A DNA stretch of 64,000 bases. Origin: Parachlamydiales bacterium. GTDB lineage: Bacteria > Chlamydiota > Chlamydiia > Chlamydiales > Rhabdochlamydiaceae. Below, piece after piece: positions 30,175 to 54,602 of the stretch; position 1 is the first letter of the stretch; each line of letters opens with the position of its first letter. The notes beneath the pieces are model-generated. The model did no database searches. It saw only the letters and a list, made by a program, of their open reading frames with translations, and had not been told where the DNA came from. A program made the translations under genes and the position numbers. The stretch is from positions 1,493-65,492 of the forward strand of contig DAHVFY010000002.1 in assembly GCA_027316765.1 (NCBI GenBank), given 5' to 3'.

Positions 30175-32741
30175 TGGGTAGAGCATTGATCATTGTGGAA
30201 TCTCCTTCTAAAATCAAGACTCTAAAAAAATTTTTGGGACCAGAGTATATTTTTGAATCATCGCTCGGTCACATCCGCGATCTACCGGGTCGTGGATTTG
30301 GCATTGATATCGAACACGATTTTGAGCCTGAATATGTGACGCTTCCTGATAAAAAAGAAGTGATCGATAAATTAAAAAAAGCTGCTAAACAAGTCGACGT
30401 TGTCTATCTCTCGCCCGATCCTGACAGAGAGGGAGAAGCGATTGCCTGGCACATCGCTGCGATTCTTCCACCTGGAACTAAAATTAAACGCGCAACGTTC
30501 AATGCGATCACAAAAGAGGCTGTACTCGACGCCTTAGCTCATCCTCGTGACATTGATCAATCACTTGTAGATGCACAGCAAGCGCGCCGGCTTCTTGATA
30601 GAATTGTTGGCTACAAAATCTCTCCAATCTTGACAAGGCGTGTCCAAGGGGCTCGCGATGGGGGCCTATCAGCTGGTAGAGTTCAATCGATTGCTTTAAA
30701 ACTTGTTGTGGATCGAGAAGCTGAGATCACAGCTTTTACACCTGTTGAATACTGGAATATTGGAACTCTTCTTGGCCACAAAAAGGGGGAAGCACCTTTC
30801 CGCGCTTCATTGCATTCTGTCGAAGGCAAAAGAGTTGAGAAGGAAGCAGTACTCGGAAAAGATCTCTACTTAATCCCTAATAAAGAAACTGCGGACAAGA
30901 TTGTTTCAAAACTCAAAGAAGCAACCTATACCGTTCAACACATCGAAAAAAAAGAGAAAAAGCGCAATCCTGTTCCTCCTTTTATCACCTCAACGCTGCA
31001 ACAAGAAGCAAGTCGGCATTATGGCTTTTCAGCAGCGCGCACGATGAATATCGCTCAAGGTCTTTATGAGGGTATTGACATGGGCAATGAAGGAACTGAG
31101 GGTCTTATCACTTACATGCGTACCGATTCGGTCCGGCTTGCGCCTGAGGCTATCGAAGCTGCACGCGGTTATATCAACAAACACTTTGGTAGAGACTATC
31201 TTCCAGATCAGGGTAAACAATATTCAACAAAGAAAAGCGCTCAAGATGCGCATGAAGCCATTCGCCCAACTAACCTCAACCACCCTCCGGAGGTCATCAA
31301 AGAATTCCTATCTCCTGACCAATTCAAACTCTATCTTCTCATTTGGCGCAGGTTCATCGCATCACAAATGAATCCAGCAATCTACGATACGGTGTCCTAT
31401 GACGTTGCAACAAATAAAAATCTGCTTCTTCGCGCTACGGGCTCTGTCATCAAATTCCCCGGTTTTCTTGCTGCATACGAAGAAAAACAAGATAAGGGAC
31501 ACGAAGAAGAGGAGGAGGGAAAACTTACATTACCGGTGCTTGTAGAAGGACAATCTCTTAATCTTTTCGAGGTGCTCTCTGAACAGGCTTTTACAAGACC
31601 TCCTCCTCGTTTTACAGAAGCCTCTCTTGTTAAAGAACTTGAAAGATTGGGAATTGGAAGACCCTCTACATACGTCGCCATCATGAATAAAATCCAAAGC
31701 CGCGACTATACGACCAAAGAAAAAGGCACTCTAAAACCCACAGAGCTTGGCATTGTCATCGCAAAAATGCTAGAAGAAAATTTCAAGATGATCATGGATA
31801 TCACGTTCACGGCAACTATGGAAGATGATCTTGAAAATGTCGCAGAGAGCAAAAAAGAGTGGAAAGAGATTATCCGTCAATTTTGGACAAACTTCTTTCC
31901 GCTTGTTGAAGCTGCAGAAAAAGATGCCTTTGTCCCTAAAATTCTCACAGATATCGACTGTCCAAATTGTGGAAAAAAACTTCAAAAAATCTGGTCGAGA
32001 AAAAAATATTTTTACGGATGCTCCAACTATCCTGAATGTAATTACACAGCGCCGCTAGAGGCTCTTGAATTTAAAAAAGAAGACTATGATCCTGGATTTG
32101 ACTGGGAGCAACCATGTCCTATATGCAAAGAAAAAATGATCCTTCGTTTTGGTAAATTTGGTGCTTTTCTCGGTTGCAGTCGCTATCCTGAATGTCGTGG
32201 TATTGTCAATATTCCTAAAAAAGGGGAACCTCTTCCCCAAGAAATGCCCACATGTCCAGCTCATGGCTGTGATGGCAAAATGACGCAAAGAAGATCTCGT
32301 TTTGGAAAAATATTCTTCTCCTGCTCCAATTATCCTGACTGCGACGTAATTGTTAACGATCTTGATGACCTTGAAACTAAATATCCTGATCACCCTAAAA
32401 CTCCTTATGTCAAAAAAGAGAAGAAAGGTGCTAAAAAAGGAAATTCTAAAGCAAAAACTTCTGAAAAGTCAAAATCGGCAAAAAAGAAAACGGCATCAAA
32501 ACGGCAACAACCAACTCTTAAACTCTCAGCAGAACTACAGGCAGTTGTCAAAGATGCGGAACTTCCACGCACTGAGGTTGTCAAAAAAATGTGGGACTAC
32601 ATCAAAGAAAACAAGCTTCAAGATCCAAAAAATAAGCGCATCATCCTTCCCGATGCAAAACTTGCAAAAATTTTTGGCTCTAAAAACCCCGTTGATATGA
32701 TGAAACTTGCCGGACTTCTTAGCCCCCACATGAAAAAATGA
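30174..32741 (+). CDS. topA: DNA topoisomerase I with three Zn ribbons, a Lys-rich linker and a C-terminal SWIB domain
   Basis: It has a TOPRIM domain (IIVESPSK, DPDREGE), the active-site region YMRTDS, three CxxC...CxxC ribbons, and a KK-rich linker followed by SWIB. Confidence 0.95.
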   Translation: MGRALIIVESPSKIKTLKKFLGPEYIFESSLGHIRDLPGRGFGIDIEHDFEPEYVTLPDKKEVIDKLKKAAKQVDVVYLSPDPDREGEAIAWHIAAILPPGTKIKRATFNAITKEAVLDALAHPRDIDQSLVDAQQARRLLDRIVGYKISPILTRRVQGARDGGLSAGRVQSIALKLVVDREAEITAFTPVEYWNIGTLLGHKKGEAPFRASLHSVEGKRVEKEAVLGKDLYLIPNKETADKIVSKLKEATYTVQHIEKKEKKRNPVPPFITSTLQQEASRHYGFSAARTMNIAQGLYEGIDMGNEGTEGLITYMRTDSVRLAPEAIEAARGYINKHFGRDYLPDQGKQYSTKKSAQDAHEAIRPTNLNHPPEVIKEFLSPDQFKLYLLIWRRFIASQMNPAIYDTVSYDVATNKNLLLRATGSVIKFPGFLAAYEEKQDKGHEEEEEGKLTLPVLVEGQSLNLFEVLSEQAFTRPPPRFTEASLVKELERLGIGRPSTYVAIMNKIQSRDYTTKEKGTLKPTELGIVIAKMLEENFKMIMDITFTATMEDDLENVAESKKEWKEIIRQFWTNFFPLVEAAEKDAFVPKILTDIDCPNCGKKLQKIWSRKKYFYGCSNYPECNYTAPLEALEFKKEDYDPGFDWEQPCPICKEKMILRFGKFGAFLGCSRYPECRGIVNIPKKGEPLPQEMPTCPAHGCDGKMTQRRSRFGKIFFSCSNYPDCDVIVNDLDDLETKYPDHPKTPYVKKEKKGAKKGNSKAKTSEKSKSAKKKTASKRQQPTLKLSAELQAVVKDAELPRTEVVKKMWDYIKENKLQDPKNKRIILPDAKLAKIFGSKNPVDMMKLAGLLSPHMKK
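32520..32738 (+). other. SWIB/MDM2 domain fused to the TopA C-terminus
   Basis: The sequence is LSAELQAVVKDAELPRTEVVKKMWDYIKENKLQDPKNKRIILPDAKLAKIFG...MMKLAGLLSPHM. Confidence 0.85.
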
Positions 32742-33793
32742 AAGAAAGAGGAAACTCGGTTTTACGATGGCTTGATCGCTACTTAGGAATTCCTCTTATC
32801 TTTGCTTTGGGCTTTTTCAAGCGAAAAAAAAGGCTTCGAGCACAAGAGCGCATCGGAATCCTTATCTTAGGAGGCATCGGAGATACTGTCCTTCTAACAG
32901 CTCTACTGCAAGATCTTAAAGGAAAAGAGATTACACTTTTTACAAGTCAATCAAATGCAGAAATAGCACGTCTCATTCCTGGGGTCAATGTCGTTCCTCT
33001 CACTCTCTTTCTTCCTTACTGTTCGACAAAAAAAATTCGAAAAACTCACTTTGACGTCTGGATCGACGTCAATCCTTGGCCAAGAATCAACGCCTTTTTT
33101 TCTTTTTTTGCAAAAGCTGATTTCAAGATTGGATTCAAAACTAAAGGGCAATATCGTCATTATGTGTATGATCACGTAGTGGAACACTCAAATACCTGCC
33201 ACGAACTTGACAATTTACGCGCTCTTTTCAAGATCCTTTCTCTCAAAACAGCACATCTTCCCTTTATTCCCACTGGGGAAGGGACGCCATCTCCTCAGTT
33301 AATTGCGCTTCATCTCTACGCTTGCGGCGCGCGCGCACATCTCAAAGAATGGCCAGAAAAAAACTGGGTCCAATTAATGCATTGTTTACTAGAAAAGGGC
33401 TTTTCAATTGTGTTAACAGGCAGTCCATCTGATCGACATCGATTGGAGCTTATACGATCAAAATGCCGCCTTCAAGAAAAAATAGAAGTGGCAGCCGGCA
33501 AGCTAAATCTTCGTGAAACGGCATCTCTTCTCAAAAGTGTTCGCGCAACCATTAGCATTGATACAGGAATCATGCATCTTGCAGCAGCGGTAGGATCCCC
33601 CGTCATCTCTCTTCACGGTCCAACTTCTCCCAAGAGATGGGGCGCTATTGGTAAAATGGTGGTTCCCTTAACGTGGAAGGAGAGCTATGCACCTTGCATT
33701 CATCTTGGATTTGAATCCACTTGTTCCTCTAATCGATGCATGGAAGAAATTAAGGTGATCGATGTCATCAGCGCTCTTTCTACGACCTGTTGA
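32738..33793 (+). CDS. Glycosyltransferase family 9 (heptosyltransferase-like), copy 2
   Basis: It contains ILILGGIGDTVLLTALLQDL, DTGIMHLAAAVGSPVISL and a Cys-rich C-terminus. It overlaps topA by ATGA. Confidence 0.7.
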   Translation: MKERGNSVLRWLDRYLGIPLIFALGFFKRKKRLRAQERIGILILGGIGDTVLLTALLQDLKGKEITLFTSQSNAEIARLIPGVNVVPLTLFLPYCSTKKIRKTHFDVWIDVNPWPRINAFFSFFAKADFKIGFKTKGQYRHYVYDHVVEHSNTCHELDNLRALFKILSLKTAHLPFIPTGEGTPSPQLIALHLYACGARAHLKEWPEKNWVQLMHCLLEKGFSIVLTGSPSDRHRLELIRSKCRLQEKIEVAAGKLNLRETASLLKSVRATISIDTGIMHLAAAVGSPVISLHGPTSPKRWGAIGKMVVPLTWKESYAPCIHLGFESTCSSNRCMEEIKVIDVISALSTTC

Positions 33794-34776
33794 GGTTGTA
33801 TTCTTTTCATACAGAGATTGTTTTGGCAGCGTGCATAGGCTTTTCCATCATAACAAGGAGAACACTTCAATCCTTTTCCCCCAAAAAGAACATCGCAACT
33901 TTCTGCTACAACTTCGATAGGATTTGTAGGTCCAAAAAGAGCGAGCGTTTTACACCCACTAACTCTTGCTAAGTGAAGTGGCCCTGAATCATGTGTGATC
34001 ACAAGCTGGCATCTTTTATAAAAGGCGACAAGGTCTAAAAGAGTGGTTTTTCCAATCAAATTCTCAAATTCAAGCCCTGAAAAATGAGGAAGCACCCATG
34101 CGTCTTCCTCAGCCCCTGTTACGGCAACTGGAATCCCCATTTTGGAAAATCTTTTAATGAGGTCAGCATAATATTCAATGGGCCATCTTCGCAGCGCATC
34201 ATCTCTTAGCAAATTTTTCGCACCGCCTGGAGCCAATGCAATGGGAGCTTTTCGTGCGATATCATACAGATGTTCAGGAAGTGTGCACTGGATTTTAGGA
34301 AAAATAAGAGGATGATCTTCTTCTAAAGAAGCAAGTCGTAAATATTCACGCGATCTACATGCTCCTGAAGCTGGAGATGGCGGTTTTTGCTTTCTTGAAA
34401 AATGGCGATGCATCGTCTTGCGCACGCCTCTTGCAAGCCAAAGATAACGAGGATCGGGATGAGCTGTCAGCACAAGATCAAAAGAAAAAAGAGACAATTT
34501 TTTCCAAAGACCCAATACTTCTACTCCTTTTTGCCAAAGGTTTCCACAAAACAGCTTCCTCTCATCAATGAGAATCAGTCGGTCAACAAGACCTGTTGCT
34601 GCAACAAGGGAAGATGCAACTTTTCCAACAACCCATGTGATCTTGATTTCAGGATTTTGCTTTCGAAATGATGTAAGTAAAGGAAGCGCTGCTATGACAT
34701 CGCCAATTGCTGCGATTTTGATGATAAGCACGCTCTGTAACCGAGAGTGATCGCCATATGAACCCATACATAACAC
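33700..34776 (-). CDS. Glycosyltransferase family 9 (heptosyltransferase-like), copy 3
   Basis: It contains VLIIKIAAIGDVIAALPLL, HDSGPLHLARVSGCKTLALFGPTNP and CSPC...C...C. Confidence 0.7.
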   Translation of the reverse strand: MLCMGSYGDHSRLQSVLIIKIAAIGDVIAALPLLTSFRKQNPEIKITWVVGKVASSLVAATGLVDRLILIDERKLFCGNLWQKGVEVLGLWKKLSLFSFDLVLTAHPDPRYLWLARGVRKTMHRHFSRKQKPPSPASGACRSREYLRLASLEEDHPLIFPKIQCTLPEHLYDIARKAPIALAPGGAKNLLRDDALRRWPIEYYADLIKRFSKMGIPVAVTGAEEDAWVLPHFSGLEFENLIGKTTLLDLVAFYKRCQLVITHDSGPLHLARVSGCKTLALFGPTNPIEVVAESCDVLFGGKGLKCSPCYDGKAYARCQNNLCMKRIQPQQVVERALMTSITLISSMHRLEEQVDSNPR

Positions 34777-35984
34777 CGAAAAAGCCCGGGATTAAACTGC
34801 AACACCAAGATCATGACAAAAAGAGAAATAAAGAGCGAGCGCGCAATGCTTGCTTCTTTTTCTGGGAGCTCCTCGATTTTTCTGAAACTGATTCTCACAC
34901 TTTTTGCAAGCAACATAAAGGCTAAAACACCAAGAAGACCAAGTCCTGCAAGAATTTCTGTTGCGCTATTTGTTGGATCGTATTGCTCAGACTGCTGAAG
35001 GCTCAAACCAAACGAACTTTCGGGAAACACACCCACTTCGTTGCGATAAAAAAGATAAGGGCCTATCCCGCCGATGCCAACGCCAAGAAAAGGATGCTCG
35101 CAAAAAACGCTCCAAGCATTGACAATTCCTATCCATCTTTCTGAAAAAGAATGATGCATAAAAAAGTTGGAAACAAAAAATTTAAAGAAAAAAAGAACCA
35201 TTTGAGGAGCTAATAAAAAAAGCGCCACAAGAAAAGAACTAATACCTAAAACAAATGTTATAAATCTTTTATAAAAATGTTTTGTGCGCGGGGTTAGAAA
35301 AACGATAAGCGCAAGAAAAAAAATATAAGCAAACAAAGCACTCGTTGCAGTTGAAATTAAAAAAAGCACATTCACAAAAAGCAACTTAAAAAAACTCTTC
35401 TTTTCAGCTGAGAAAAAATAAAGAGCATTCATAAACATCACAAAAGCACACATATAAAGTGCATAAAACGAAGGTTCATAAGAAAGGCCATGGGGGCGTG
35501 CGAGACCTCCATCTATAAACTGTCGCAGCAAAGGAAGATAGATCCCCATCATCGAAAAAACGAGCTGACAAAGGGCATAAACTCCCATCACAACGAAAGA
35601 AAAACAATAACAATTCAGAATTTTTTCTCGATCAAAATGAAACAGCAAAGTGAATGGCACTAAAAAATAAACAGCAAATTCAAAGAGATACACAGCAACG
35701 TATCCTAAACACCTCTCCACATAAATACTACCCAAGGAGGAAAGAGTGAGAGAAAAAAAAATTCCAACAAATGGAAAAATTATCTCTTTCGGAATCACAA
35801 CTCCTCGTCTAGAAAAAACAAGGAAAATAAAAAGGGCTACTGCAAATAGATGATTAACTTTCATCTTGAAAAGGGCGACTTCCACGTGTAACACGTCTAT
35901 CGAAAGCGTCACAAAATAACAAAACACCAGGATATAAAAAAGATTGCGCCCGCATCCTTCTCTTTTTTCTAAGGCATCACTCAT
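34692..35984 (-). CDS. Multi-TM O-antigen ligase / Wzy_C family protein (WaaL-, Wzy- or PglL-like)
   Basis: It is highly hydrophobic with a late loop SERWIGIVNAWSVFCEHPFLGVGIGG...NSATEILAGLGLLG, which resembles the Wzy_C periplasmic loop. Confidence 0.55.
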   Translation of the reverse strand: MSDALEKREGCGRNLFYILVFCYFVTLSIDVLHVEVALFKMKVNHLFAVALFIFLVFSRRGVVIPKEIIFPFVGIFFSLTLSSLGSIYVERCLGYVAVYLFEFAVYFLVPFTLLFHFDREKILNCYCFSFVVMGVYALCQLVFSMMGIYLPLLRQFIDGGLARPHGLSYEPSFYALYMCAFVMFMNALYFFSAEKKSFFKLLFVNVLFLISTATSALFAYIFFLALIVFLTPRTKHFYKRFITFVLGISSFLVALFLLAPQMVLFFFKFFVSNFFMHHSFSERWIGIVNAWSVFCEHPFLGVGIGGIGPYLFYRNEVGVFPESSFGLSLQQSEQYDPTNSATEILAGLGLLGVLAFMLLAKSVRISFRKIEELPEKEASIARSLFISLFVMILVLQFNPGLFRCYVWVHMAITLGYRACLSSKSQQLAMS

Positions 35985-36699
35985 CGAACACTCTCTGATG
36001 AAGAACTACAGAAGTGGGAGCATCGAGGCGAAGACGCCCTTCTTCAAGCCAAAGAGTACGGGGACACAGAAATTGAAGAAGATCTAGCTGATGACCCACA
36101 AAAAAAAGTGTTCTTGTGCCTTGAGCGATCACTTCTTGCATTTTGCTTAAAGCTTTTTTCTGAAATGAAACGTCCCCAATAGAAAGAACCTCATCGATGA
36201 TGAGCACTTCACTTTTTAAATGCGCAATCACAGAAAAAGCTAAACGCAAGAACATACCACTTGAGTATTTTTTTACGGGGGTATCTAGAAAGGGCTCAAT
36301 CTCAGCAAAAGCGACAATCTCATCAAAGCTACGTGTGATCTCATATTTTCTCATTCCTAAAATTGCACCACTTAAAAAAATATTTTCTCTTCCTGTAAGT
36401 TCTGGATGGAACCCAGCGCCCACTTCCAAAAGAGCCCCCACTCGTCCCTGTACAACAATCTCCCCAGATGTAGGTAAAATTACTCGTGAAAGGAGTTTTA
36501 AAAGTGTGCTTTTACCAGCCCCATTCTTTCCGATGATCCCAATAAGTTCTCCCGGACTTACTTTAAAATTGACATCTTGAAGTGCAAAAAGTGATCGAAC
36601 CTTCTCTCTTTTATTCCACAAATGCGTAAGCTCTTCTTTCATTGTCTCTCTACGAGAAGACAAAGGAAACATTTTACTCAAATTTTTGACAATGATCAT
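35977..36699 (-). CDS. Polysaccharide/O-antigen export ABC transporter, ATP-binding subunit (Wzt/TagH/KpsT-like, short form)
   Basis: It has Walker A GKNGAGKST, signature YSSGM, Walker B LIIDE and an H-loop. No C-terminal carbohydrate-binding extension is present. Confidence 0.8.
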   Translation of the reverse strand: MIIVKNLSKMFPLSSRRETMKEELTHLWNKREKVRSLFALQDVNFKVSPGELIGIIGKNGAGKSTLLKLLSRVILPTSGEIVVQGRVGALLEVGAGFHPELTGRENIFLSGAILGMRKYEITRSFDEIVAFAEIEPFLDTPVKKYSSGMFLRLAFSVIAHLKSEVLIIDEVLSIGDVSFQKKALSKMQEVIAQGTRTLFFVGHQLDLLQFLCPRTLWLEEGRLRLDAPTSVVLHQRVFDE

Positions 36700-37520
36700 T
36701 AAATTACATCTGCAAAAGTACGTTCTAGTCGCTCAAAGACTACCATTCCAGTAAAAAACACCACAAAAGAAATCACCAGGGCAATTGTTAAATGCAACGT
36801 AGGGAAAGTCGTCATACCCAAAATAGCAAAACGAAAGCTTTCAGCAAAGCCAACAAGAGGATTGAGAGCAAATAACGTTTGCCATTTTTCCGGTACCAAA
36901 CTAAAGGAATAAAAAAGAGGAGAGGCATACATAAGAAGCTGTAACATGAATGGAATCACATGAATAAAATCTCGATAATGAATGTTCAAAGCAGCCAAAA
37001 ACACAGCAACTCCCGTGGCAAAAAGAACTTCAGCCAAAACGAAAGGAAAAATAAGGAGCATATGCCAGGTGAAAGGAACGCCGTATATAGGAAGTAAAAT
37101 AAGAATAATGCAAAACGCTACAAGAAAATCAACAAGCATTGCAGCAACACTTGCAAAAGGGATAAGCAGTCTTGGAAAATACACTTTAGAAATCAAGCGA
37201 GCATCTCCCAAAAGACTATTTGATGCGCGTTGCACAATCTGAGAAAACAATAACCATACCAGCATCCCAACAAAAGCAAAAAGAAGATATGGAGTTTTTT
37301 CAGGGATAGAAAATTTGGCAAAAGATCCAAAAAGAAGGCTAAAAAGCAGCGCTGTTGCAAGTGGTTGCAAAACAACCCAAGCGATGCCAACTGCCGTCTG
37401 CTTGTATTTGAGTTTGATGTCTCTTTGCACAAGAAGAAAAAAAAGATCGCGAAACTCCCACAACTCAAGAATTGCAGGAAATCCCCATCCATTTTTTGCA
37501 CAAATGCGGCGAGAGGTCAT
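36699..37520 (-). CDS. ABC-2 type polysaccharide export permease (Wzm-like)
   Basis: It has six hydrophobic segments and the N-terminal LVQRDIKLKYKQTAVGIAWVVLQP motif typical of ABC-2 exporters. Confidence 0.75.
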   Translation of the reverse strand: MTSRRICAKNGWGFPAILELWEFRDLFFLLVQRDIKLKYKQTAVGIAWVVLQPLATALLFSLLFGSFAKFSIPEKTPYLLFAFVGMLVWLLFSQIVQRASNSLLGDARLISKVYFPRLLIPFASVAAMLVDFLVAFCIILILLPIYGVPFTWHMLLIFPFVLAEVLFATGVAVFLAALNIHYRDFIHVIPFMLQLLMYASPLFYSFSLVPEKWQTLFALNPLVGFAESFRFAILGMTTFPTLHLTIALVISFVVFFTGMVVFERLERTFADVI

Positions 37521-38083
37521 AAAATTAAAGTATCGATCATCGTTTGAAGGAGAAAATGATGCGCAAGATCTACAAGCGATTCATCGTGTGCATCAATCCA
37601 AAAGTTAAGGTCCCCGGCTTCTCTCAAAGGATTGCTGCTCTCAAAACCGCTTAAAGTAATGAGAAGAGAACCTTTTTCTCGCGCCTCTTCTACAGCGTGT
37701 AAAATATTTGTCGATTTACCTCGCGTAGAAATCGCAAAAAGAAGATCTCCTTCTTTTAATAAGGTCCGAAGGGGATGGCGATAGGCTTCTGCATAGCCGT
37801 AATCACTAGCTATTGTCGTAATCCCTTGAGCATCAAAAAGCGGAAACGCAGCTATATGTGAATTTTTCAGTAGATGTGTGCAAAATTGAGAAGCGATTCC
37901 ACCGCTTGGTCCATTTCCTACTGCGTATACGTGTTTACGTTGTTCTTTAACCTGAGAAAAAAAAGCTGTTGATAACTCCATTGCTTCATCAAGATCTAAC
38001 AGATCATCTTGAGTTGTACAAACGCAGTTTTGAATCGCTCTCCCAAATTCTTCCAATTTTTTATTAACGAGAGTAATCATCAT
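37517..38083 (-). CDS. gmhA: SIS-domain sugar-phosphate isomerase, GmhA-like (sedoheptulose-7-phosphate isomerase)
   Basis: It contains VYAVGNGPSGGIASQF, ITTIASDYGY and LLFAISTRGKSTNILHAVEEAR. Size and block order are as in GmhA. Confidence 0.55.
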   Translation of the reverse strand: MMITLVNKKLEEFGRAIQNCVCTTQDDLLDLDEAMELSTAFFSQVKEQRKHVYAVGNGPSGGIASQFCTHLLKNSHIAAFPLFDAQGITTIASDYGYAEAYRHPLRTLLKEGDLLFAISTRGKSTNILHAVEEAREKGSLLITLSGFESSNPLREAGDLNFWIDAHDESLVDLAHHFLLQTMIDTLIL

Positions 38084-39093
38084 AAAACGAATGCCTCTTG
38101 TAGTACTTGTATAATATTCTTCCCCTCTACACTCCTGCAGAAAGGATTATCTGGCTTCCAAAGCCTTTGCAAATTGGGCGCCAGAACGAGATTTGGTGTT
38201 TTAAAACTACTAGCAATATGCATCACCACTGTGTCTGTACTAACCATTAATTTAGCCTTTTGAATTGAAAATACAAGCTGCTTCCATGTCAGTTGATCAC
38301 AAAGAGAAACTCCATAACCCGTTTGATCGATCAGCTTATCGATATTCTCTTTTTCTCTACAACCCCTTCCTGTCAAAAAAAGAGGATAATGACGTCTAGC
38401 AAAATATTCTATTACTCTTTTCCAAACGGTAAAGGGTTGTTCTTTTTTAGGATTCCCACTGCCCACATGAAGAACGACAAAAGCCTCAGGTAAATCAAAA
38501 GGTTCTCCTATAAGAAATGGAAATAGATCCTCTTTTATTCCTAACAGATCGGCATAGTAATGCGTGATCGATTGCGATTTTTCGATCCAAAGGAAAGGAT
38601 CCGTAAGCAAGGGACCAAAACCTCCACTTGTATAACCCACTCGGCAAGGAATTTCAGTTTTAGATAGAAGATGAATAGCGTTTGGAAAGTAAGGATAAAG
38701 ATCTATTGCACAATCATAATTCGTCGCTTGAATCTCCTGAATCGCTTTTTTTTTCATCTCAAAATAGCGAAACACTTTTTGCGGAAAGGAAAGAAAAGAA
38801 CGATTCAACTTCCAGTGATCGACAACATGCAATTTCGATACCAAAGGATTTCCTTCAAGCACATCTTTCGAGCCACTTCCTATAAGAAATCCTATCTCAG
38901 CTTCCGGATAAATTTTTTTTAAAGGTTTAAGAACGCTTGTAGCAGTGACAACATCTCCCATATGAGCTAAATTTGCAAGAAGGATCTTTTTTGGACTCTC
39001 TAATTTTTTTAAAGGAACTTGGCTTAAGAAAGTATCGCAACCCTTAAGAAATGTCAGCAGCAACGGGTTCTTTACTAAGTAATTGGGTCTCAC
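38080..39093 (-). CDS. Glycosyltransferase family 9 (heptosyltransferase-like), copy 4
   Basis: It contains ILLANLAHMGDVVTATSVLKPLKK and STDTVVMHIASSFKTPNLVL. It overlaps uvrB by 4 nt upstream and gmhA by 4 nt downstream. Confidence 0.7.
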   Translation of the reverse strand: MRPNYLVKNPLLLTFLKGCDTFLSQVPLKKLESPKKILLANLAHMGDVVTATSVLKPLKKIYPEAEIGFLIGSGSKDVLEGNPLVSKLHVVDHWKLNRSFLSFPQKVFRYFEMKKKAIQEIQATNYDCAIDLYPYFPNAIHLLSKTEIPCRVGYTSGGFGPLLTDPFLWIEKSQSITHYYADLLGIKEDLFPFLIGEPFDLPEAFVVLHVGSGNPKKEQPFTVWKRVIEYFARRHYPLFLTGRGCREKENIDKLIDQTGYGVSLCDQLTWKQLVFSIQKAKLMVSTDTVVMHIASSFKTPNLVLAPNLQRLWKPDNPFCRSVEGKNIIQVLQEAFVL

Positions 39094-41093
39094 AAATCCT
39101 CTTCTAAAAGTTGCAACTCTCTGTAACGACGTAGCTCATCTCGAAAATAAGCAGCGTCTTCAAAGCGATGTTCCTTTGCAGCTTTTTTCATTTCGGTTTC
39201 ACACTCACGAATCTTTGCATCTACTTCTTTTTGCGTTAATACATGAGTCTTCGGCTCCTCTTGCGGCTTCATCTCCTCAAACACCTCACCCAGATCTTCA
39301 ATTAACTCACGCTTGGTGCTTTTCGGAATAATTCCATGCTTCTCATTGTAGGCTTTTTGAAGTGCTCGTCTTTTGTTGGTGATATCAAGCGTTTTTTGCA
39401 TTGATGCCGTAATTCTATCGGCGTACATGATCACGCGTCCATCTACATTGCGCGCGGCTCTTCCGCAGGTTTGTACAAGAGCTGTTTCACTTCGCAAAAA
39501 CCCTTCTTTATCCGCATCAAGGATTGCAACAAGCGCAACCTCAGGAATATCCAATCCTTCCCTGAGAAGGTTGATCCCAACAAGAACATCAAAACCTCCT
39601 TTGCGCAATTCATTAATAATCTGCACTCTCTCAATTGTATCGATATCTGAATGAAGATATTTAGCCTTTACACCAATTTCATTTAAATATTTAGACAAGT
39701 CTTCAGAAAGCTTTTTAGTCAACGTTGTGACAAGAACTCTCCTTCCTCTTTCTGTTACCTTACGAATCTCTTCTAAACAGTCATCTACCTGAGTTCCTGC
39801 AGAACGCACCTCAATCATCGGATCCAAAAGACCTGTTGGGCGTATGATCTGTTCTACAATCTCTCCTGAAGCTTCTGCAACTTCCCAAGGACTCGGAGTT
39901 GCAGAAACATAAACCACTTGATCAAAGCGTTGATACACCTCTTCGAATTTAAGAGGCCGATTATCAAAAGCGGACGGAAGTCGAAACCCAAATTCAACAA
40001 GAGAACTTTTACGCGCTCTATCGCCATTATACATCGCATGTAATTGCGGCAAAGTCTGATGCGATTCGTCAATAAAAAAGATGAAATTTTTCGGGAAATA
40101 ATCTAAAAGGCAAGGGGGAGGATCGCCGGCGTTTCTTTTACTAAAATGTCTAGAATAGTTCTCAATCCCTTTACAAAAACCGATCTCTTTAATCATTTCC
40201 AGATCATAACTTGTCCGCTGCTTAATCCTTTGCATCTCAACGAGCTTATTTTCCTTTTCAAAAAGAGCAATTCTCTCCTGCAACTCTTCTTGAATGCTTC
40301 TTACTGCATCAAAACGTACTGCTTCGGGAGTCACATGGTGCGATCCTGGAAAAATCACAATGTGTTCAAGGCGTTGTCTAACTTTTCCTGTAAGAGGATC
40401 AATCTCGCTAATCCGTTCTATCTCATCACCGAAAAATTCAACTCTGTAGGCTCTTTCTTCCTCATAAGCTGGCATAATCTCTAGCACATCGCCACGCGCT
40501 CGAAATGTGGAACGAGAGAGTTCGTAGTCGTTGCGTTTGTAATGAATTTCTACAAGATGCAACAAAACTTCATCTCGTCGTCTTTTTTCTCCAAGGCAAA
40601 TCTTCAACTGCATCTGACTGTAATATTCGGGAAGACCCAACCCATAGATACAAGAAACTGAAGAAACAATGATGACATCCTCTCTTTCGATAAGCGAGCG
40701 CGTCGCGCTCAGGCGCATCCGATCGATTTGATCATTAATCGCAAGATCTTTTTCAATATATGTATCAGTACGAGCGATATACGCCTCCGGCTGATAGTAA
40801 TCGTAATAAGAGACAAAATATTCAACGGCGTTGTCGGGAAAAAAGTTCTTAAACTCCTGATACAGCTGAGCTGCAAGAGTTTTATTATGAGCTAAAACAA
40901 GTGCCGGCCTTTGAACTCTAGCAATCACATTTGCCATGGTAAATGTCTTACCCGAGCCTGTAACACCTAAGAGGACCTGTGCTTTTTTTCTCTCAAGAAG
41001 CCCTAAGGAGAGTTTTTCTATTGCTTGCGGTTGATCACCGCAAGGCTCAAACGCGGTTTGCAGTCGAAACATGGCAGATTTTGGCGTATTCAT
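39090..41093 (-). CDS. uvrB: Excinuclease ABC subunit B
   Basis: It contains FEPCGDQPQAI, GVTGSGKT, YFVSYYDYYQPEAY and the C-terminal UVR motif. The start is at 41093 (MNTPKSAMFRLQ) or 41072 (MFRLQ). The tracked start 41171 is unlikely. Confidence 0.95.
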   Translation of the reverse strand: MNTPKSAMFRLQTAFEPCGDQPQAIEKLSLGLLERKKAQVLLGVTGSGKTFTMANVIARVQRPALVLAHNKTLAAQLYQEFKNFFPDNAVEYFVSYYDYYQPEAYIARTDTYIEKDLAINDQIDRMRLSATRSLIEREDVIIVSSVSCIYGLGLPEYYSQMQLKICLGEKRRRDEVLLHLVEIHYKRNDYELSRSTFRARGDVLEIMPAYEEERAYRVEFFGDEIERISEIDPLTGKVRQRLEHIVIFPGSHHVTPEAVRFDAVRSIQEELQERIALFEKENKLVEMQRIKQRTSYDLEMIKEIGFCKGIENYSRHFSKRNAGDPPPCLLDYFPKNFIFFIDESHQTLPQLHAMYNGDRARKSSLVEFGFRLPSAFDNRPLKFEEVYQRFDQVVYVSATPSPWEVAEASGEIVEQIIRPTGLLDPMIEVRSAGTQVDDCLEEIRKVTERGRRVLVTTLTKKLSEDLSKYLNEIGVKAKYLHSDIDTIERVQIINELRKGGFDVLVGINLLREGLDIPEVALVAILDADKEGFLRSETALVQTCGRAARNVDGRVIMYADRITASMQKTLDITNKRRALQKAYNEKHGIIPKSTKRELIEDLGEVFEEMKPQEEPKTHVLTQKEVDAKIRECETEMKKAAKEHRFEDAAYFRDELRRYRELQLLEEDL

Positions 41094-42186
41094 TAAGAAG
41101 CAAGTAAAGGTAAAGATAAGTGCTTTCCGAGGAGAGTTCTGTCTTTGCAAATTCGGTTGCCCGTTCCGCAATCATTTTGCATTCAGCATCATGCGTACGT
41201 GCCCAATTCAACTGCACAAAAAAATCAGATAAATCTTCTCGACAAGGGATGAAGTGCTCATTTGGCTTTAAAGCTCCATAGTACCACTGAATATTGTCAG
41301 AGATTTGCTTAATTACGACAGAATTAGAAAGAAGCTCCCAATAGCAACGAGAATAAGAACAAGAATTTCCATCAACTTCTGGAAGATATTTGTACCGAAT
41401 ATGTTCAGAAGGTGCAGCCGGCATTCCTAAAAAACCGCGCGCTGAAAGAAAATACCGCGTCTCATTGTCCATTTGAACAAGGGAGGTAAACCTGGCATCA
41501 AGATCTCGAGGATTTCTAATAGAAAAAAGAACAAGTTTGGCTCTTGGAAATGTTTCCCAATTTTTAAGATCAAAAGTTCCCCCGGTTGAAGAGCCTCTCC
41601 AAAAGGCTCTTTTCACTTTCATTTCCCAAGGATATTGAGCATTGCCAGCTAAAATATTTGCTGTCAGTCTATCATAACCATTTAAAGCCTCAAAATCTGG
41701 GATGAGAACTCCTCCGACAGAGTTTTTATTCTTAGCAAAAGCTAACACAGGACAAACGTTCTCGACAAACCCTCTAGAATAATCATCATGTAGCGTGATG
41801 ATGAGATCTAGATCGGGAAGTTGTTTAATTGCATTTAGTCTATCAAAAGCCCCCTTGACAGCTTGCAAACGAACGACTTCTTTCTCAACAGTGCGATTTG
41901 TGATAGAAATATTTCCATTAACTATCTTAAAACGAACAAGCAATTTATCTTTGGAATTTCCATCACTATTCCAAAAACCGTCTAGCATGCCTGAAGTAAT
42001 CCCTTTTTCCCTAAAAGGAGCCAGATCTGACTCAATCTGTTCCATCATCCAGCTTGGAGGAACATGTTCCATTTTTTCTTTTAATACCTGCTCATCCAAA
42101 GCAAGACATCCTACAGGTAAACAATAGAGTGCCCTCAGAAAAACGGAACAAAAAATTTTACTCCAATTAACCGCGTGCCGTAACAT
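41047..42186 (-). CDS. GT90 / CAP10-domain glycosyltransferase (POGLUT/KDELC-like) with signal peptide
   Basis: It has KRAFWRGSSTGG and a downstream block KYLPEVDGNSCSYSRCYWELLSNSVV characteristic of CAP10. The N-terminus is hydrophobic. Confidence 0.6.
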   Translation of the reverse strand: MLRHAVNWSKIFCSVFLRALYCLPVGCLALDEQVLKEKMEHVPPSWMMEQIESDLAPFREKGITSGMLDGFWNSDGNSKDKLLVRFKIVNGNISITNRTVEKEVVRLQAVKGAFDRLNAIKQLPDLDLIITLHDDYSRGFVENVCPVLAFAKNKNSVGGVLIPDFEALNGYDRLTANILAGNAQYPWEMKVKRAFWRGSSTGGTFDLKNWETFPRAKLVLFSIRNPRDLDARFTSLVQMDNETRYFLSARGFLGMPAAPSEHIRYKYLPEVDGNSCSYSRCYWELLSNSVVIKQISDNIQWYYGALKPNEHFIPCREDLSDFFVQLNWARTHDAECKMIAERATEFAKTELSSESTYLYLYLLLNEYAKICHVSTANRV

Positions 42187-43378
42187 AAGAGGCTCCTAAC
42201 ATAATGGACAGTTGTATGCATAATACAAAAAGGGCGAAACCAAAAACACCAAATAATACGGAACGTCCACCTCTGACCTGATAAGAAGAGGGAATATGTT
42301 TTTTATACCTTCCAATCCACACCATGGTTGCAGGGATAATTCCAAAAAGAACGACCGCACAAATTCCGCCTGCAAAATTCAGCGCTTTAAAAAAAAGTTG
42401 CGGATAGATGACAGCAAAAATCAATGGAGGAAGTAGTGTCAGAGCACACAATCTAAAATCTTCCCGTTTCTCTTTTGGAATTTTCAAACCATCCGCCAAA
42501 AAATGCACAAGACTGAGCGCTTGAGCTAGAAAAGAAGTTAAAATAGCAAAAAAAGCAAGCCATTTGGCGCAAAAGCTGATCATCGAAGAACCTAAAAAAC
42601 CAGCTAATGCTTGTGAAGCTTCTTTGTCATGTTTTAAACTTTCTAAAATACCTGAAGCACCCTGCATAGGGACAATTCCTAAAACTAAAACTTCCCAGAT
42701 CAAATAAATAAAAAGGGATAATAAACTCCCTCCAATAATCGTTTTTTTTACGCGTTTAAGGTCCCCTTTCATATAGGCTGTCAAACTCGGAATCATATTG
42801 TGAAAGCCAAATGCGATAATTAAAATGGGCAGTGAGTAAATTGCGTAAGAGGGTTCTGTTCTAGCAAGCAAATAGGGGGATATGTGCCTTGCCCCTAAAA
42901 AAACAAGAACACAAAATGTACCAATTTTGAAAACCATCAAAACTCTATTCCAAAGATCCACCGATCTTGTTCCAAAAAAAACTATGCAGCCAAATAAGAG
43001 GACAAAAAAAAGACTTCCCAACCAGTTAGGAACTGCAGGAATAATTGTCGTTACAATACTGCCGCTTCCTGCCACATAAGCGATAAGAAGAGCGTAAAAC
43101 AAAAAAAGATACAAGACCCAACTGATTCCCTTACCAAATTTTCCTAAGGTTTTTTCAACCATTGAAATAAAGTTTACAGGATTTGGAAACCAACCATTCA
43201 CTTCAATAATAAGAAGCCCTGTCATTGTCATAAAAGACCAAGCACAAAAAAACATCACAAGAGAGGGAACAAAACCTGACAACCCGGTAAGAATAGGAAG
43301 ACCTAGCATACCGGCTCCAATACAACTACCTGCAACAAGTAACATACCGCCAATGACACTTCCTGGCTTATCACTCAT
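42167..43378 (-). CDS. tyrP: Aromatic amino acid (Tyr/Trp) permease, HAAAP family
   Basis: It begins IGGMLLVAGSCIGAGMLGLPI and is an 11-TM-type hydrophobic protein of about 400 aa. Confidence 0.75.
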   Translation of the reverse strand: MSDKPGSVIGGMLLVAGSCIGAGMLGLPILTGLSGFVPSLVMFFCAWSFMTMTGLLIIEVNGWFPNPVNFISMVEKTLGKFGKGISWVLYLFLFYALLIAYVAGSGSIVTTIIPAVPNWLGSLFFVLLFGCIVFFGTRSVDLWNRVLMVFKIGTFCVLVFLGARHISPYLLARTEPSYAIYSLPILIIAFGFHNMIPSLTAYMKGDLKRVKKTIIGGSLLSLFIYLIWEVLVLGIVPMQGASGILESLKHDKEASQALAGFLGSSMISFCAKWLAFFAILTSFLAQALSLVHFLADGLKIPKEKREDFRLCALTLLPPLIFAVIYPQLFFKALNFAGGICAVVLFGIIPATMVWIGRYKKHIPSSYQVRGGRSVLFGVFGFALFVLCIQLSIMLGASYVTARG

Positions 43379-45023
43379 TTAAATCTCTTGTCTGAAGTTT
43401 TTCTAGAACACGAATTTCTTGCCCAAGCCTTCCAAGCTCATACCCTTCATAATCCACAAATTTAAAAAATCGCTCGAAACAAGGCAGCACCTGACACACC
43501 TGTTTTGCAAGCTCTTGCGCAATATAGCGGTATGTCGGATGTCCTGCAGGTGCAGATCTGAGCTCGCACAGCCATTGAAGAGCGCGCAAATTAACATGAA
43601 AGTACCAGTGCATATTATATGCCATGGGAACAACATATTGAGCCTCTTCTGGGAACTCAGCAGCGATAGTATCAAATGCTTTTTTTGCAGATTCCATCGC
43701 AAGACAGTAAGAAGCTTCCATTTCCGTGTCTTTGACTTCTTGAGGAACGAAAAAGCCAAGATCACAAGAAAAAATCTGTCTTTCTTGAGTAAGCATCCTA
43801 TGACGTTGCAAATCCCGATAAATACCAAAATCAGCAACAATTTCAAAAGTAAATACCGCATGCTCAAGAGCGCGCGGAGACTTGTGACGTCTGTTTTCGC
43901 GATAGTTGCTCGCTGCATCAAGAATTTGATTAAGATCCTCTTCAGATAAAGAAAGGCAATGCTCCTGCAACTCCCAAAGTCCTGCTCCAGAGTTTGCAAA
44001 AAGAAGAGCTGCTGCAACTTTCGCAGGGCTCTTAGAATCATAACTTAAAAGGCGAACACCCGGCCCTTTCATAGAAGAAATCGATCCCGCATATTTACCC
44101 GCAAGCTCTTTTAACTCTCCTTGCATCTGCTCTTGATAGTCTGTGAATGTTTTCTGATATTTGTGCCCTGCATCAGCTCTACGGACAAAAGAAGGGATAA
44201 CTTTAGACAGTTCTTGAAATGCTTTCCTTCCTATATCTTGCATCTCGCTTAAAGTCGCCGCATTTAATTTTTGAATCAACGTTTCAAAAAAACGACCATT
44301 ACCAAAAACTCCCATATTCGTAAGAGCGCTTGCTGGTAAAAGCCCCCGTAAACAATCAAGAACTTTTGCACGAAGAGCTGCTGTGTAAGCAACTTTAGAA
44401 ACTTCATGTTCTCTTGGGAATTTCTTTTCCATTAACTCTGTTAGAGGAGGAATTAACTTGGAATAGGTCTCAAAAAGATGATTACATGTATCGACATAAA
44501 GATCGCGAAAAGCAGATGTCATTAAAATCGGCTCTCGAAGAAAAAGATACTCCCCATGTACTTTTTGATCAAAATAGATGTAACGTGTTGATTTTTCTAG
44601 GGGAGATCCTCCAATTCGACAATCTTCAATCATTTTGGCAGCAAGCATTGAAACATTTTCAACCGCCAAATGCGCCCCACCCAACTCACCGATCGAATCA
44701 TCTCCATAACCATCAAGAATTCTATCATAAAAATTTTGAGCTCTCTTGATCGCTGTGATTTGATCTTCTAAAACGGCATCTTCTCCTCCCTGGCCAATTA
44801 ACTGACCCGAAATCGACGCGAAGGCCGTCTCTTCATTCAAAATAAACTCTTTGAGAAGCAAAGATCTCAAACCCAAACTCGAACGAGAATATCTAGAAAA
44901 AAGAGCTCCCTTGATCACCTCTGGAAGATTTCGTAGGACAAAAACATTACTTTTCGCACTTGTTACATAACGATCCAAAATCTTAACCTGGGCATCAGAG
45001 AACTCTTCATAACCTTCAAACAT
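43371..45023 (-). CDS. thyX: Long-form FAD-dependent thymidylate synthase (ThyX-like)
   Basis: A ThyX-type LQRHRM motif lies in the C-terminal half. Its size is comparable to the ~530-aa chlamydial ThyX. The start is at MFEGYEEF (45023) or 45038. Confidence 0.7.
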   Translation of the reverse strand: MFEGYEEFSDAQVKILDRYVTSAKSNVFVLRNLPEVIKGALFSRYSRSSLGLRSLLLKEFILNEETAFASISGQLIGQGGEDAVLEDQITAIKRAQNFYDRILDGYGDDSIGELGGAHLAVENVSMLAAKMIEDCRIGGSPLEKSTRYIYFDQKVHGEYLFLREPILMTSAFRDLYVDTCNHLFETYSKLIPPLTELMEKKFPREHEVSKVAYTAALRAKVLDCLRGLLPASALTNMGVFGNGRFFETLIQKLNAATLSEMQDIGRKAFQELSKVIPSFVRRADAGHKYQKTFTDYQEQMQGELKELAGKYAGSISSMKGPGVRLLSYDSKSPAKVAAALLFANSGAGLWELQEHCLSLSEEDLNQILDAASNYRENRRHKSPRALEHAVFTFEIVADFGIYRDLQRHRMLTQERQIFSCDLGFFVPQEVKDTEMEASYCLAMESAKKAFDTIAAEFPEEAQYVVPMAYNMHWYFHVNLRALQWLCELRSAPAGHPTYRYIAQELAKQVCQVLPCFERFFKFVDYEGYELGRLGQEIRVLEKLQTRDLNE

Positions 45024-45166
45024 GGATAAACCCCTCATTTAGTCTATATACACAACAACTAGCCTTTGCCAAATTCTAAATCTTTACGTTCAGTCATGTA
45101 TAGCTAGCGTGACATATTCTCTACTACGGATCAAGAGAAATTTAAATGTGAACATCCAAATTTTTA

Positions 45167-47314: not shown

Positions 47315-47398
47315 GAAAGTCGAGATTAAGAGAATTGCTCTGTTTTTTTCAAGAGCATTGAACTTAATTAGATCTGCTTCTATACTCATCCAGTGTAG

Positions 47399-51683: not shown

Positions 51684-51925
51684 TTAATTAAAATCACCTC
51701 TAAGAACTGCAGAACAAAAAAACCAAGCAATGGGCTTAAATCAAGGACTCCGCCAATTGGAGGGATTATCTTCCTGAAGATATTCAAGTAAGGGTCCGTA
51801 TAATAGGCGATAAATCTCATAAATGTCGAATGTGCAATACTTGGAAACCAAGAGCCCACAACTCGAATAAATAGCATGATCAAATAGAGATTTATAATCA
51901 ATTTAATAAGATAAATAACGATCAT
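51671..51925 (-). CDS. yggT: YggT family membrane protein
   Basis: This 84-aa protein has two TM segments and the pattern IRVVGSWFP...TDPYL...R...PPIGGVLDLSPL. Confidence 0.7.
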   Translation of the reverse strand: MIVIYLIKLIINLYLIMLFIRVVGSWFPSIAHSTFMRFIAYYTDPYLNIFRKIIPPIGGVLDLSPLLGFFVLQFLEVILIKCFT

Positions 51926-54464: not shown

Positions 54465-54602
54465 ATTTATCCTAATTGAATAAGAACTCATCTCTCTAAA
54501 ATAGACAGGTTCAAGTATCCAAATTTTTACTCTTTTTACCTAATTTAGGTCAAAAAAAAACATAGAGTTTATTGAAGCTAGTCGATACAATCTCGAGGTA
54601 AT

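Follow-up and report, generated by a model that had tools for sequence, protein, structure and literature searches.

ATP-binding cassette (ABC)-dependent O-polysaccharide pathways that end in a WaaL ligase are typified by the common polysaccharide antigen (CPA) of Pseudomonas aeruginosa, encoded by the rmd-gmd-wbpW-wzm-wzt-wbpXYZ cluster, and by the O2a galactan of Klebsiella, which employs a short Wzt. In Escherichia coli a ligase gene also belongs to the inner-core operon of lipopolysaccharide (LPS), hldD-waaF-waaC-waaL, with GmhA encoded elsewhere. The LPS of the Chlamydiaceae is a rough Kdo3-lipid A (Kdo, 3-deoxy-D-manno-oct-2-ulosonic acid), a textbook minimal form and genus-specific antigen. 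Here we examine a six-gene minus-strand operon (33700-39093) in a 64,000-nucleotide stretch of DNA, hereafter the window, from a Parachlamydiales bacterium (assembly GCA_027316765.1, contig DAHVFY010000002.1). The operon codes for two family 9 glycosyltransferases (GT9a and GT9b), a SIS-domain protein of the GmhA lineage, the permease and ATPase of a Wzm/Wzt glycan exporter, and a multi-helix membrane protein with a Wzy_C domain. The best explanation of our results is that it is the form taken in a single lineage by a surface-glycan locus that many uncultured Chlamydiota share; what stays fixed in this locus is the WaaL-like Wzy_C protein of the inner membrane, encoded beside a topA-SWIB fusion gene. 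The system is of a known kind, namely an ABC-dependent glycan pathway with a ligase-type enzyme, and shares with the described O-polysaccharide systems the adjacent Wzm and short Wzt, the GT-B glycosyltransferases and a last step of Wzy_C fold. It departs from them in its set of GT9 enzymes in place of GT4 or GT2, in a GmhA-like protein without the active site, in a ligase-like gene that lies inside the cluster and specifies a branch without the catalytic histidine, in having no initiating transferase in the window, and in coming from a phylum in which the LPS so far studied is rough.

Every open reading frame (ORF) of at least 150 amino acids in the window was searched with Pfam and NCBIfam profiles. 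A preliminary description, made from the sequence alone, had listed six minus-strand genes with overlapping or abutting stop and start codons, a short-form ABC ATPase among them, and two further GT9 genes (GT9c and GT9d); the ORFs and their order are as it stated, and the profile searches it proposed (Glyco_transf_9, SIS, ABC2_membrane, Wzy_C) place all eight operon and GT9 domain matches above the Pfam gathering thresholds (Table 1). From GT9a to GT9b the successive overlaps, computed on the longest ORFs, are 4, 4, 1 (Wzm and Wzt), 8 and 85 nucleotides, the last shrinking to 40 with the start called by the Joint Genome Institute (JGI). The uvrB stop and the GT9a start share four nucleotides (GTGA), or are separated by 27 if a TTG start is taken, and the co-oriented overlapping run reaches farther upstream, where genes for ThyX, a Trp/Tyr permease, GT90 and UvrB precede the operon in this order. 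The six operon ORFs are all intact. Their G+C content (0.396-0.399) is that of the surroundings, and recent horizontal transfer of the operon was rejected on this ground.

Using a Wzy_C profile, we assembled 53 related loci from species-representative genomes in a scan that relied on one invariant peptide motif (L numbers denote related genomic or metagenomic loci and P numbers relatives of the SIS protein). All but one are apparently Chlamydiota metagenome-assembled genomes (MAGs), a few of them deposited under another phylum name or none, the sole non-chlamydial exception being a Myxococcales MAG; no cultured isolate was found among the 53 by this motif-dependent scan. The chlamydial origin of the window DNA, which lies on a JGI metagenome contig, is supported by this distribution together with the TopA-SWIB fusion, recognized by Pfam and typical of chlamydiae. 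In L002 the order GT90-UvrB-GT9-SIS-Wzm-Wzt-Wzy_C is the same and the proteins are 66-89% identical to those of the window (SIS 84%; Wzm, Wzt and Wzy_C 71-81%). L058 and L059 likewise share the gene order, interrupted by a GT61 gene that runs on the other strand (SIS 76% and Wzy_C 59% identical to the window), and in L058 the Wzy_C gene is followed by GT9-GT9(reversed)-TopA_SWIB-DprA-GT32-like. The position of the GT90 gene is kept in L002 and L058, and other GT90 copies flank Wzy_C in L004. Because the order recurs in L002, L058 and L059, it is a real and selected arrangement in one chlamydial clade.

The composition of the wider locus was surveyed by clustering the 485 ORFs within 8 kb of Wzy_C in 52 loci and annotating the recurrent clusters. 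The Wzy_C gene adjoins topA-SWIB in most of the 53 loci, and around it the census found Gmd-type dehydratases/epimerases (30 loci), ManC directly upstream of Wzy_C (26), two GT4 families (A in 25 and B in 23), a UDP-Glc/GDP-Man dehydrogenase (14), a CmcI-type O-methyltransferase (8), a C-methyltransferase (7), a HddA-like GHMP kinase (6) and a HddC-like nucleotidyltransferase (5). GT2 and GT9 genes are likewise recurrent, LptF/LptG occur in two loci and a Kdo_hydroxy gene is found in L060. An export gene is visible in 15 loci, divided equally between Wzm/Wzt, a Wzx-like flippase and a fused HepA/MsbA-like ABC transporter (5 each), and no locus has two types. Loci L028, L029 and L030 combine Wzx and a second Wzy_C paralogue with the conserved Wzy_C, which to judge from gene content is a complete Wzx/Wzy set plus ligase. 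In L013 and L016 the order is Wzm-Wzt-Gmd-x-reductase-GT4-GT4-ManC-Wzy_C-TopA, with Gmd scores of 540 and 430 bits that pass the equivalog cutoff of 415; with Gmd, ManC and two GT4 genes, these sister loci have the gene set of the P. aeruginosa CPA cluster, whose product is a D-rhamnan exported in an ABC-dependent manner. The window clade appears to have replaced the common GDP-mannose cassette with GT9a-SIS-Wzm-Wzt. Since one invariant protein partners every interchangeable export route, the Wzy_C protein behaves, in this comparative picture, like a terminal ligase rather than a polymerase.

The fused transporters (ABC_membrane plus ABC_tran) lie directly after or near Wzy_C in several chlamydial lineages (L062:11337-13097, L061:18155-19930, L050:14997-16808); against NCBIfam they score highest with HepA (355 bits) and MsbA (336 bits), and they are candidate flippases of the PglK/Wzk type for a lipid-linked glycan. 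The window has its own tandem GT4 genes (51922-53187 and 53184-54491, minus strand), 50-53% identical to each other, with an unannotated ORF of 488 amino acids divergent from them (54603-56069). The GT4 pair found ahead of Wzy_C in other chlamydiae is unrelated, and the idea that the window genes are that pair relocated was rejected, the similarity being 33-39% over about 56 residues only. Similarly, the Kdo_hydroxy gene of L060 occupies the slot of the window ORF 26830-27765 (minus strand), but the two proteins are unrelated, so that the window ORF was dismissed as a KdoO; it has no Pfam match, and its homologues in 16 related chlamydial loci are up to 42% identical.

The Wzy_C protein (430 amino acids) has an exhaustive profile-search family of 2,349 relatives at E<=1e-3, with 256 representatives at E<=1e-30, and its identity across most other lineages is 31-47%. 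The AlphaFold2 (AF2) model is of good quality (pLDDT, predicted local distance difference test, 83.7; pTM, predicted template modelling score, 0.87), and a Foldseek search of the PDB returned a single significant match, the WaaL ligase of Cupriavidus metallidurans (7TPG_B; E 9.7e-6; template modelling (TM) scores 0.53/0.56), followed by FtsW. Thus the protein combines the Wzy_C domain with the multi-helix GT-C(B)-type fold of WaaL (7TPG/7TPJ, and the enzymes of E. coli and Vibrio cholerae). Unlike those enzymes it has just 13% identity to 7TPG and no NCBIfam match of any kind, ligase models included. The histidine motif of the ligases is H-[NSQ]-x9-G-x2-[GTY], with H337/338 in E. coli WaaL, and WaaL enzymes bind the pyrophosphate of their undecaprenyl-linked donor through conserved periplasmic Arg residues.

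Mapping residues onto 7TPG depends on a weak profile alignment (E 0.084), in which P337-x-N339-x3-E343-x5-G349-x2-G352 of the window protein falls on A312-H313-N314-x3-E318...G..G, so that H313, the proposed catalytic residue of the ligase, is opposite T338 and the remainder of the motif, the conserved N-x3-E-x5-G-x2-G, matches exactly. H324 of PglS, proposed to be catalytic, is equivalent to H313, and conserved Arg and Glu residues accompany it (PMC12800693). None of the 22 sequences of the chlamydial family has His in column 338; across 176 aligned relatives the column holds T (66), M (38), S (33) or K (7), and His occurs once in about 160 sequences. The same weak alignment places the invariant R283 on R265 of 7TPG; R163, E170, E343, G349 and G352 are also invariant in the family and R91 is mostly kept. 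Another histidine, H277, stands six residues before R283 in 133 of about 165 sequences, and distant members have H-S-x3-R instead. The WaaL/PglL histidine is therefore probably truly absent from the family and, as this residue is common to both, the protein should be neither a canonical WaaL nor a canonical PglL. The family thus appears to be a distinct branch of the superfamily, with the ligase fold and most of its motif but without the documented catalytic residue.

The four GT9 proteins all retain two motifs of the family, G-D near the N-terminus and, toward the C-terminus, the donor motif D-[TS]...H (G46, D47, D287 and H292 are invariant across them), and in GT9c the elements K...W-P and D-T-G...H align with residues 190-293 of E. 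coli HepI; from these residues the enzymes look active. All four stay below the equivalog cutoffs for WaaC, WaaF and WaaQ, the best scores against heptosyltransferase models being 41-77 bits against cutoffs of 135-569. GT9a gives 64 bits with heptosyltransferase I (cutoff 185), and GT9b about 70 bits with heptosyltransferases I/II, below the cutoffs, and 63 bits with the PDB entry 3TOV. The alternative raised in the preliminary description, that they modify proteins as bacterial autotransporter heptosyltransferases (BAHT), found no support and was rejected: the TibC/Aah model matches GT9c alone, with 22.8 bits against a cutoff of 200. As the four copies are mutually just 21-35% identical over partial lengths, they are old paralogues. 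Orthologues of GT9a (five other chlamydial cassettes), GT9b (L035 and L051) and GT9c (L004 and L005, where they immediately precede Wzy_C) are restricted to some cassettes. GT9d has 705 homologues at E<=1e-10, the best 120 of which are 54-80% identical and, where named, come from Chlamydiota/Rhabdochlamydiaceae MAGs, and its position beside rpoN recurs in L003, L012, L019, L026 and L060. As GT9d is far more conserved than the Wzy_C protein, we infer that it is a candidate inner-core transferase and that GT9a-c are cassette-specific.

Placement of GT9 genes beside a ligase-like gene recalls the E. coli hldD-waaF-waaC-waaL operon, and the window operon additionally holds a GmhA-lineage gene, which in E. 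coli lies outside; it differs in the sub-cutoff scores of its GT9 proteins, in the lost tetrad of the GmhA-like protein and in lacking both hldD and hldE within the window. The SIS protein has a single-domain fold closest to GmhA, with DiaA, a non-enzymatic paralogue, nearly as good (AF2 pLDDT 92; Foldseek TM 0.80-0.86 to GmhA and 0.81-0.84 to DiaA), and retains the S-T-x-G-x-S loop that binds sugar phosphate. By phmmer it matches GmhA PDB chains with 45-60 bits, and its scores against the GmhA NCBIfam models (65.3, 58.7 and 56.7 bits) fall far under the equivalog cutoffs (276, 209 and 265). The zinc and catalytic residues of GmhA are H61, E65, Q172 and H180 in E. coli, corresponding to H64, E68, Q175 and H183 in Burkholderia pseudomallei, an assignment backed by the PDB mutant entries H64Q and Q175E. 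At these positions canonical GmhA (P0041) reads H, E, Q, H and the chlamydial copies of L034 and L042 read H, D, E, H, while the residues of the window protein are Q, H, D and Q; its clade, in which all four positions vary, has lost the tetrad. Because no other protein of the operon is as well conserved (73-76% identity to P0035-P0038, one of them the L058 copy, besides the close match in L002) and its 40 N-terminal residues are nearly invariant, the SIS protein is judged to be functional, though probably not as a canonical GmhA; it could act as an isomerase through other residues, or else as an accessory protein that binds sugar phosphates. The labels "D-sedoheptulose 7-phosphate isomerase" and "heptosyltransferase I" that annotation pipelines attach to these genes are not justified by the residue evidence.

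Other chlamydial loci encode a fuller set. In L034, L042 and L063 the SIS gene is followed by one for a protein with CTP_transf_like and PfkB domains; in L034 and L042, where the locus ends truncate the ORFs, it contains GVFDLLHPGH and matches rfaE_dom_II best (105/103 bits, below cutoff), and full-length relatives have 512-526 amino acids. In the L063 protein the cytidylyltransferase-like domain precedes the PfkB kinase domain, and from this architecture it is an HldE with swapped domain order. An epimerase-epimerase-SIS-HldE-like module stands directly after a chlamydial-type uvrB (71% identity) in L070, the position of the window operon, and beside a GT9b-like gene in L073; in L110 and L132 the HldE-like module is joined to Wzm/Wzt 41% and 56% identical to those of the window. 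A more distant SIS protein, P0040, is encoded beside a HddA-like kinase, a GmhB/HddC-like fusion and a split transketolase. Nucleotide-heptose-type modules therefore seem to be part of the locus in some chlamydiae, of which the window keeps only the SIS gene, in degenerate form. The preliminary description had reasoned from GmhA to heptose; the GmhA fold stands, but with the altered tetrad and low model scores the step to heptose is insecure, and heptose in the glycan of this organism is a possibility that we would place somewhat short of even.

The swapped-domain HldE-like module is apparently widespread and undescribed. It occurs at L063:5693-7231, L073:5008-6588 and L034:19259-19990 and on more than 570 metagenome contigs, linked to P0040-type SIS genes and two epimerase/dehydratases and in many contigs to a split transketolase or an E1-like thiamine diphosphate (TPP) enzyme, often beside Wzm/Wzt, methyltransferases and GT2 genes. 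A metagenome query with the chlamydial HldE-like protein gave more than 570 matches; the best 80 included no contig of the same sample (Ga0374081), an outcome that is uninformative rather than negative.

The adjacent ABC-2 permease and ABC ATPase are of the polysaccharide-export type expected of a Wzm/Wzt exporter. For Wzm, which has several predicted hydrophobic segments, the best NCBIfam matches are galactan Wzm/RfbD (70 bits) and KpsM (37 bits); for Wzt they are TagH-type (181 bits) and galactan Wzt (175 bits) models, all below the equivalog cutoffs. As the 240 residues of Wzt fit the 244-residue galactan-type model, along which 207 positions are aligned, it is by this comparison the short form without the C-terminal carbohydrate-binding module, in agreement with the preliminary description.

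From the gene content, synteny, fold similarity and residue patterns observed, we infer a carrier lipid, an acceptor, a sugar and an activity in the following pathway. GT9a, GT9b and GT9c, perhaps with GT90, would build a glycan on polyprenyl phosphate at the inner face of the inner membrane; Wzm/Wzt, with its short Wzt lacking a reader of terminal caps, would export the finished lipid-linked chain; and the Wzy_C protein would transfer it en bloc to an acceptor, most likely Kdo-lipid A, possibly extended beforehand by the conserved GT9d. The product would be an LPS of smooth or extended-core type and would differ from the rough Kdo3-lipid A of the Chlamydiaceae; its sugar may be heptose, given the GT9 family and the GmhA-lineage protein. 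We give roughly even credence to this sequence of GT9 assembly on a lipid carrier, Wzm/Wzt export and en-bloc transfer to Kdo-lipid A. An LPS-like context favours ligation to LPS over protein O-glycosylation: GT9 genes flank Wzy_C, Kdo_hydroxy and LptF/G genes occur in related loci, and there are sister loci of CPA type. The exported complex glycan of the preliminary description is therefore strengthened by comparative genomics insofar as it is a lipid-linked glycan passed via Wzm/Wzt to a WaaL/PglL-like protein, and weakened as to heptose.

Several observations weigh against this pathway. With T, M, S or K in the column of the catalytic histidine common to WaaL and PglL, the transfer chemistry of the Wzy_C family would not be the documented one, and the SIS protein has none of the four GmhA residues. 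Among ORFs of at least 150 amino acids in the window there is no heptose kinase, phosphatase or nucleotidyltransferase and no initiating transferase of the WecA/WbaP type, and the list of genes that the preliminary description gave as missing (hldE, gmhB, hldD, WecA/WbaP and waaA) holds for the window. An initiating transferase also gave no motif match in about 1 Mb of related loci and is not among the recurrent census families. Promoter and terminator scans of 32500-45400 gave counts at or below shuffle expectation, which have no bearing on the operon boundaries. Finally, the acceptor may be either a lipid A-core or a protein, and the relatives that carry the locus are all MAGs.

The Wzy_C fold is common to WaaL and PglL-type enzymes, which are not separable by sequence (PMC12800693), and the chlamydial Wzy_C family is equally far from both (7TPG, at 13% identity, is its only PDB relative, and it has no NCBIfam match); it could be an O-oligosaccharyltransferase like PglL or PglS of Neisseria and Acinetobacter, with which it shares the Wzy_C-type fold and the conserved Arg/Glu, moving the glycan onto Ser/Thr of periplasmic or outer-membrane proteins, as these enzymes transfer en bloc from undecaprenyl diphosphate (Und-PP) in the way proposed here. 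Protein acceptors would be plausible in the chlamydial outer membrane, which is rich in protein. Nevertheless we consider this unlikely: the proposed catalytic His of PglS/PglL is missing too, the protein ends without a periplasmic domain such as PglS has at its C-terminus, the neighbouring genes include none for a pilin-like or dedicated acceptor, and the context is LPS-like (GT9, Kdo_hydroxy, LptF/G). That same loss of the histidine, with several invariant arginines kept, would also suit a polymerase or another GT-C enzyme, Wzy polymerases relying on Arg residues, and FtsW-type polymerases are the next-best structural matches. The glycan would then stay lipid-anchored or be released as a capsule or exopolysaccharide, perhaps through the YjbH/GfcD-like protein (740 amino acids; Pfam YjbH 491 bits; 45167-47389, minus strand) encoded 6 kb upstream with no YjbF/YjbG partners visible nearby; in E. 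coli YjbH/GfcD is the outer-membrane component of group-4 capsule/exopolysaccharide export. Such a role appears improbable to us in that ABC pathways export finished chains and need no polymerase, the Wzy_C gene stays constant while export routes swap, the second Wzy_C paralogue found with Wzx in three loci is the better polymerase candidate, and the census contains no Wzz-like co-polymerase.

It could also be argued that the GT9 enzymes merely extend a Kdo-lipid A core at the cytoplasmic face, in the manner of a lipooligosaccharide (LOS), and that SIS-Wzm-Wzt is the decaying remnant of a larger heptose-glycan cassette whose polymer is no longer made. The SIS clade has indeed lost a tetrad that sister chlamydial proteins retain, and the window has the SIS gene only, where L070 has the fuller module after uvrB and L110 and L132 have it with Wzm/Wzt. 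Decay is, on the other hand, hard to reconcile with six intact ORFs, with purifying selection on the SIS protein as read from its high identity to L002 and P0035-P0038 and its near-invariant N-terminus, or with the conservation of Wzm, Wzt and Wzy_C in L002, and we regard this explanation as very improbable. Returning to ligation onto an LPS-type acceptor, a more comprehensive version can be offered tentatively, and would in all its parts be rather unlikely to hold: the majority of uncultured chlamydial lineages would make a smooth-type LPS or some other covalently anchored glycan through a so far unrecognised, His-less WaaL/Wzy_C branch fixed beside topA and served by interchangeable cassettes; in this lineage GT9 enzymes would build a possibly heptose-rich chain on a lipid carrier instead of lipid A for export by Wzm/Wzt, the ligase would use a relocated histidine (H277, next to R283) instead of the canonical one, and the GmhA-like protein would have been repurposed.

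Table 1. Genes of the operon, the additional glycosyltransferases and the flanking anchors in the window.
Feature	Position	Strand	Profile evidence	Remark
GT9a	38080..39093	-	Pfam Glyco_transf_9, 44.9 bits	Member of the variable cassette
SIS protein, GmhA lineage	37517..38083	-	Pfam SIS, 42.8 bits	
Wzm, ABC-2 permease of glycan exporter	36699..37520	-	Pfam ABC2_membrane, 68.6 bits	
Wzt, short ABC ATPase	35977..36699	-	Pfam ABC_tran, 76.9 bits	
Wzy_C membrane protein, WaaL-like	34692..35984	-	Pfam Wzy_C, 35.8 bits (threshold 31.7)	Putative terminal ligase
GT9b	33700..34776	-	Pfam Glyco_transf_9, 67.9 bits	Overlaps the 3' end of the Wzy_C gene
GT9c	32738..33793	+	Pfam Glyco_transf_9, 117.3 bits	Convergent with GT9b, after topA
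GT9d	24638..25561	-	Pfam Glyco_transf_9, 38.8 bits	Between uvrD and rpoN
GT90 (CAP10-like)	41047..42186	-	Pfam Glyco_transf_90, 134 bits	Upstream of uvrB, same gene run
uvrB	39090..41171	-	NCBIfam UvrB, 1042 bits	Housekeeping gene; upstream anchor of the variable cassette
topA-SWIB fusion	30174..32741	+	Pfam Toprim, Topoisom_bac, Zn_ribbon, SWIB	Downstream anchor
GT32-like DXD glycosyltransferase	28000..29178	-	Pfam Gly_transf_sug, 56 bits; weak TcdA_TcdB similarity	Beyond dprA

The GT32-like gene recurs in 12 loci of the census and is often duplicated (L004, L008, L014-L016, L018, L021, L022, L031), frequently in tandem. Its place in the glycan pathway is uncertain; given the faint similarity to the TcdA/TcdB catalytic domain, the protein could be a host-directed effector rather than a glycan builder. 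A second possible effector, of the deubiquitinase type, is the 266-residue product of 21743-22543 (plus strand), with a borderline match to the ubiquitin-specific protease domain of Legionella LupA (24.2 bits against a cutoff of 25). The 596-residue Sulfatase-family protein encoded at 5962-7752 (minus strand; domain 237-504) has the architecture of LtaS/EptA/OpgB-type membrane transferases and may transfer phosphoethanolamine or phosphoglycerol to envelope glycans. A gene for the exo-beta-N-acetylmuramidase NamZ (16719-17936, minus strand; 268 and 118 bits) adjoins one for a major facilitator superfamily (MFS) transporter (15408-16703, minus strand), a pair that suggests recycling of peptidoglycan sugars in this chlamydia-like organism. 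The window also codes for a protein of 725 amino acids (47399-49576, plus strand) with GreA/GreB domains in its last 150 residues and a long N-terminal extension, and for two 1-Cys peroxiredoxin paralogues (AhpC/TSA plus 1-cysPrx_C) lying 51 kb apart (9023-9664 and 60973-61644, both minus strand). An Rfam scan of the window found a single tRNA and no other RNA element.

Full-text literature searches on O-antigen, WaaL, Wzm/Wzt and heptosyltransferases in Chlamydiota found no study, in line with the statement of the preliminary description that neither an exported O-polysaccharide nor a general O-linked protein glycosylation system had been characterised in the phylum; one preprint lists Chlamydiota among the phyla with a HepI assigned by KEGG Orthology (KO). 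That the 53 genomes include no cultured isolate may explain why the locus was not described earlier. The biology of the phylum has mostly been extrapolated from the Chlamydiaceae and a few amoeba symbionts, and a locus present in 53 species-level genomes, with at least three export modes and cassettes of the GDP-mannose derivative, HddA/HddC-like, HldE-like and GT9-only kinds, suggests for many environmental chlamydiae a heavier glycosylation than that of the pathogenic, "rough" Chlamydia. A large branch of Wzy_C proteins that keeps the whole ligase motif except the catalytic histidine in addition poses a mechanistic question for the superfamily. Surface glycan diversity may be a major overlooked axis of host interaction in environmental chlamydiae.

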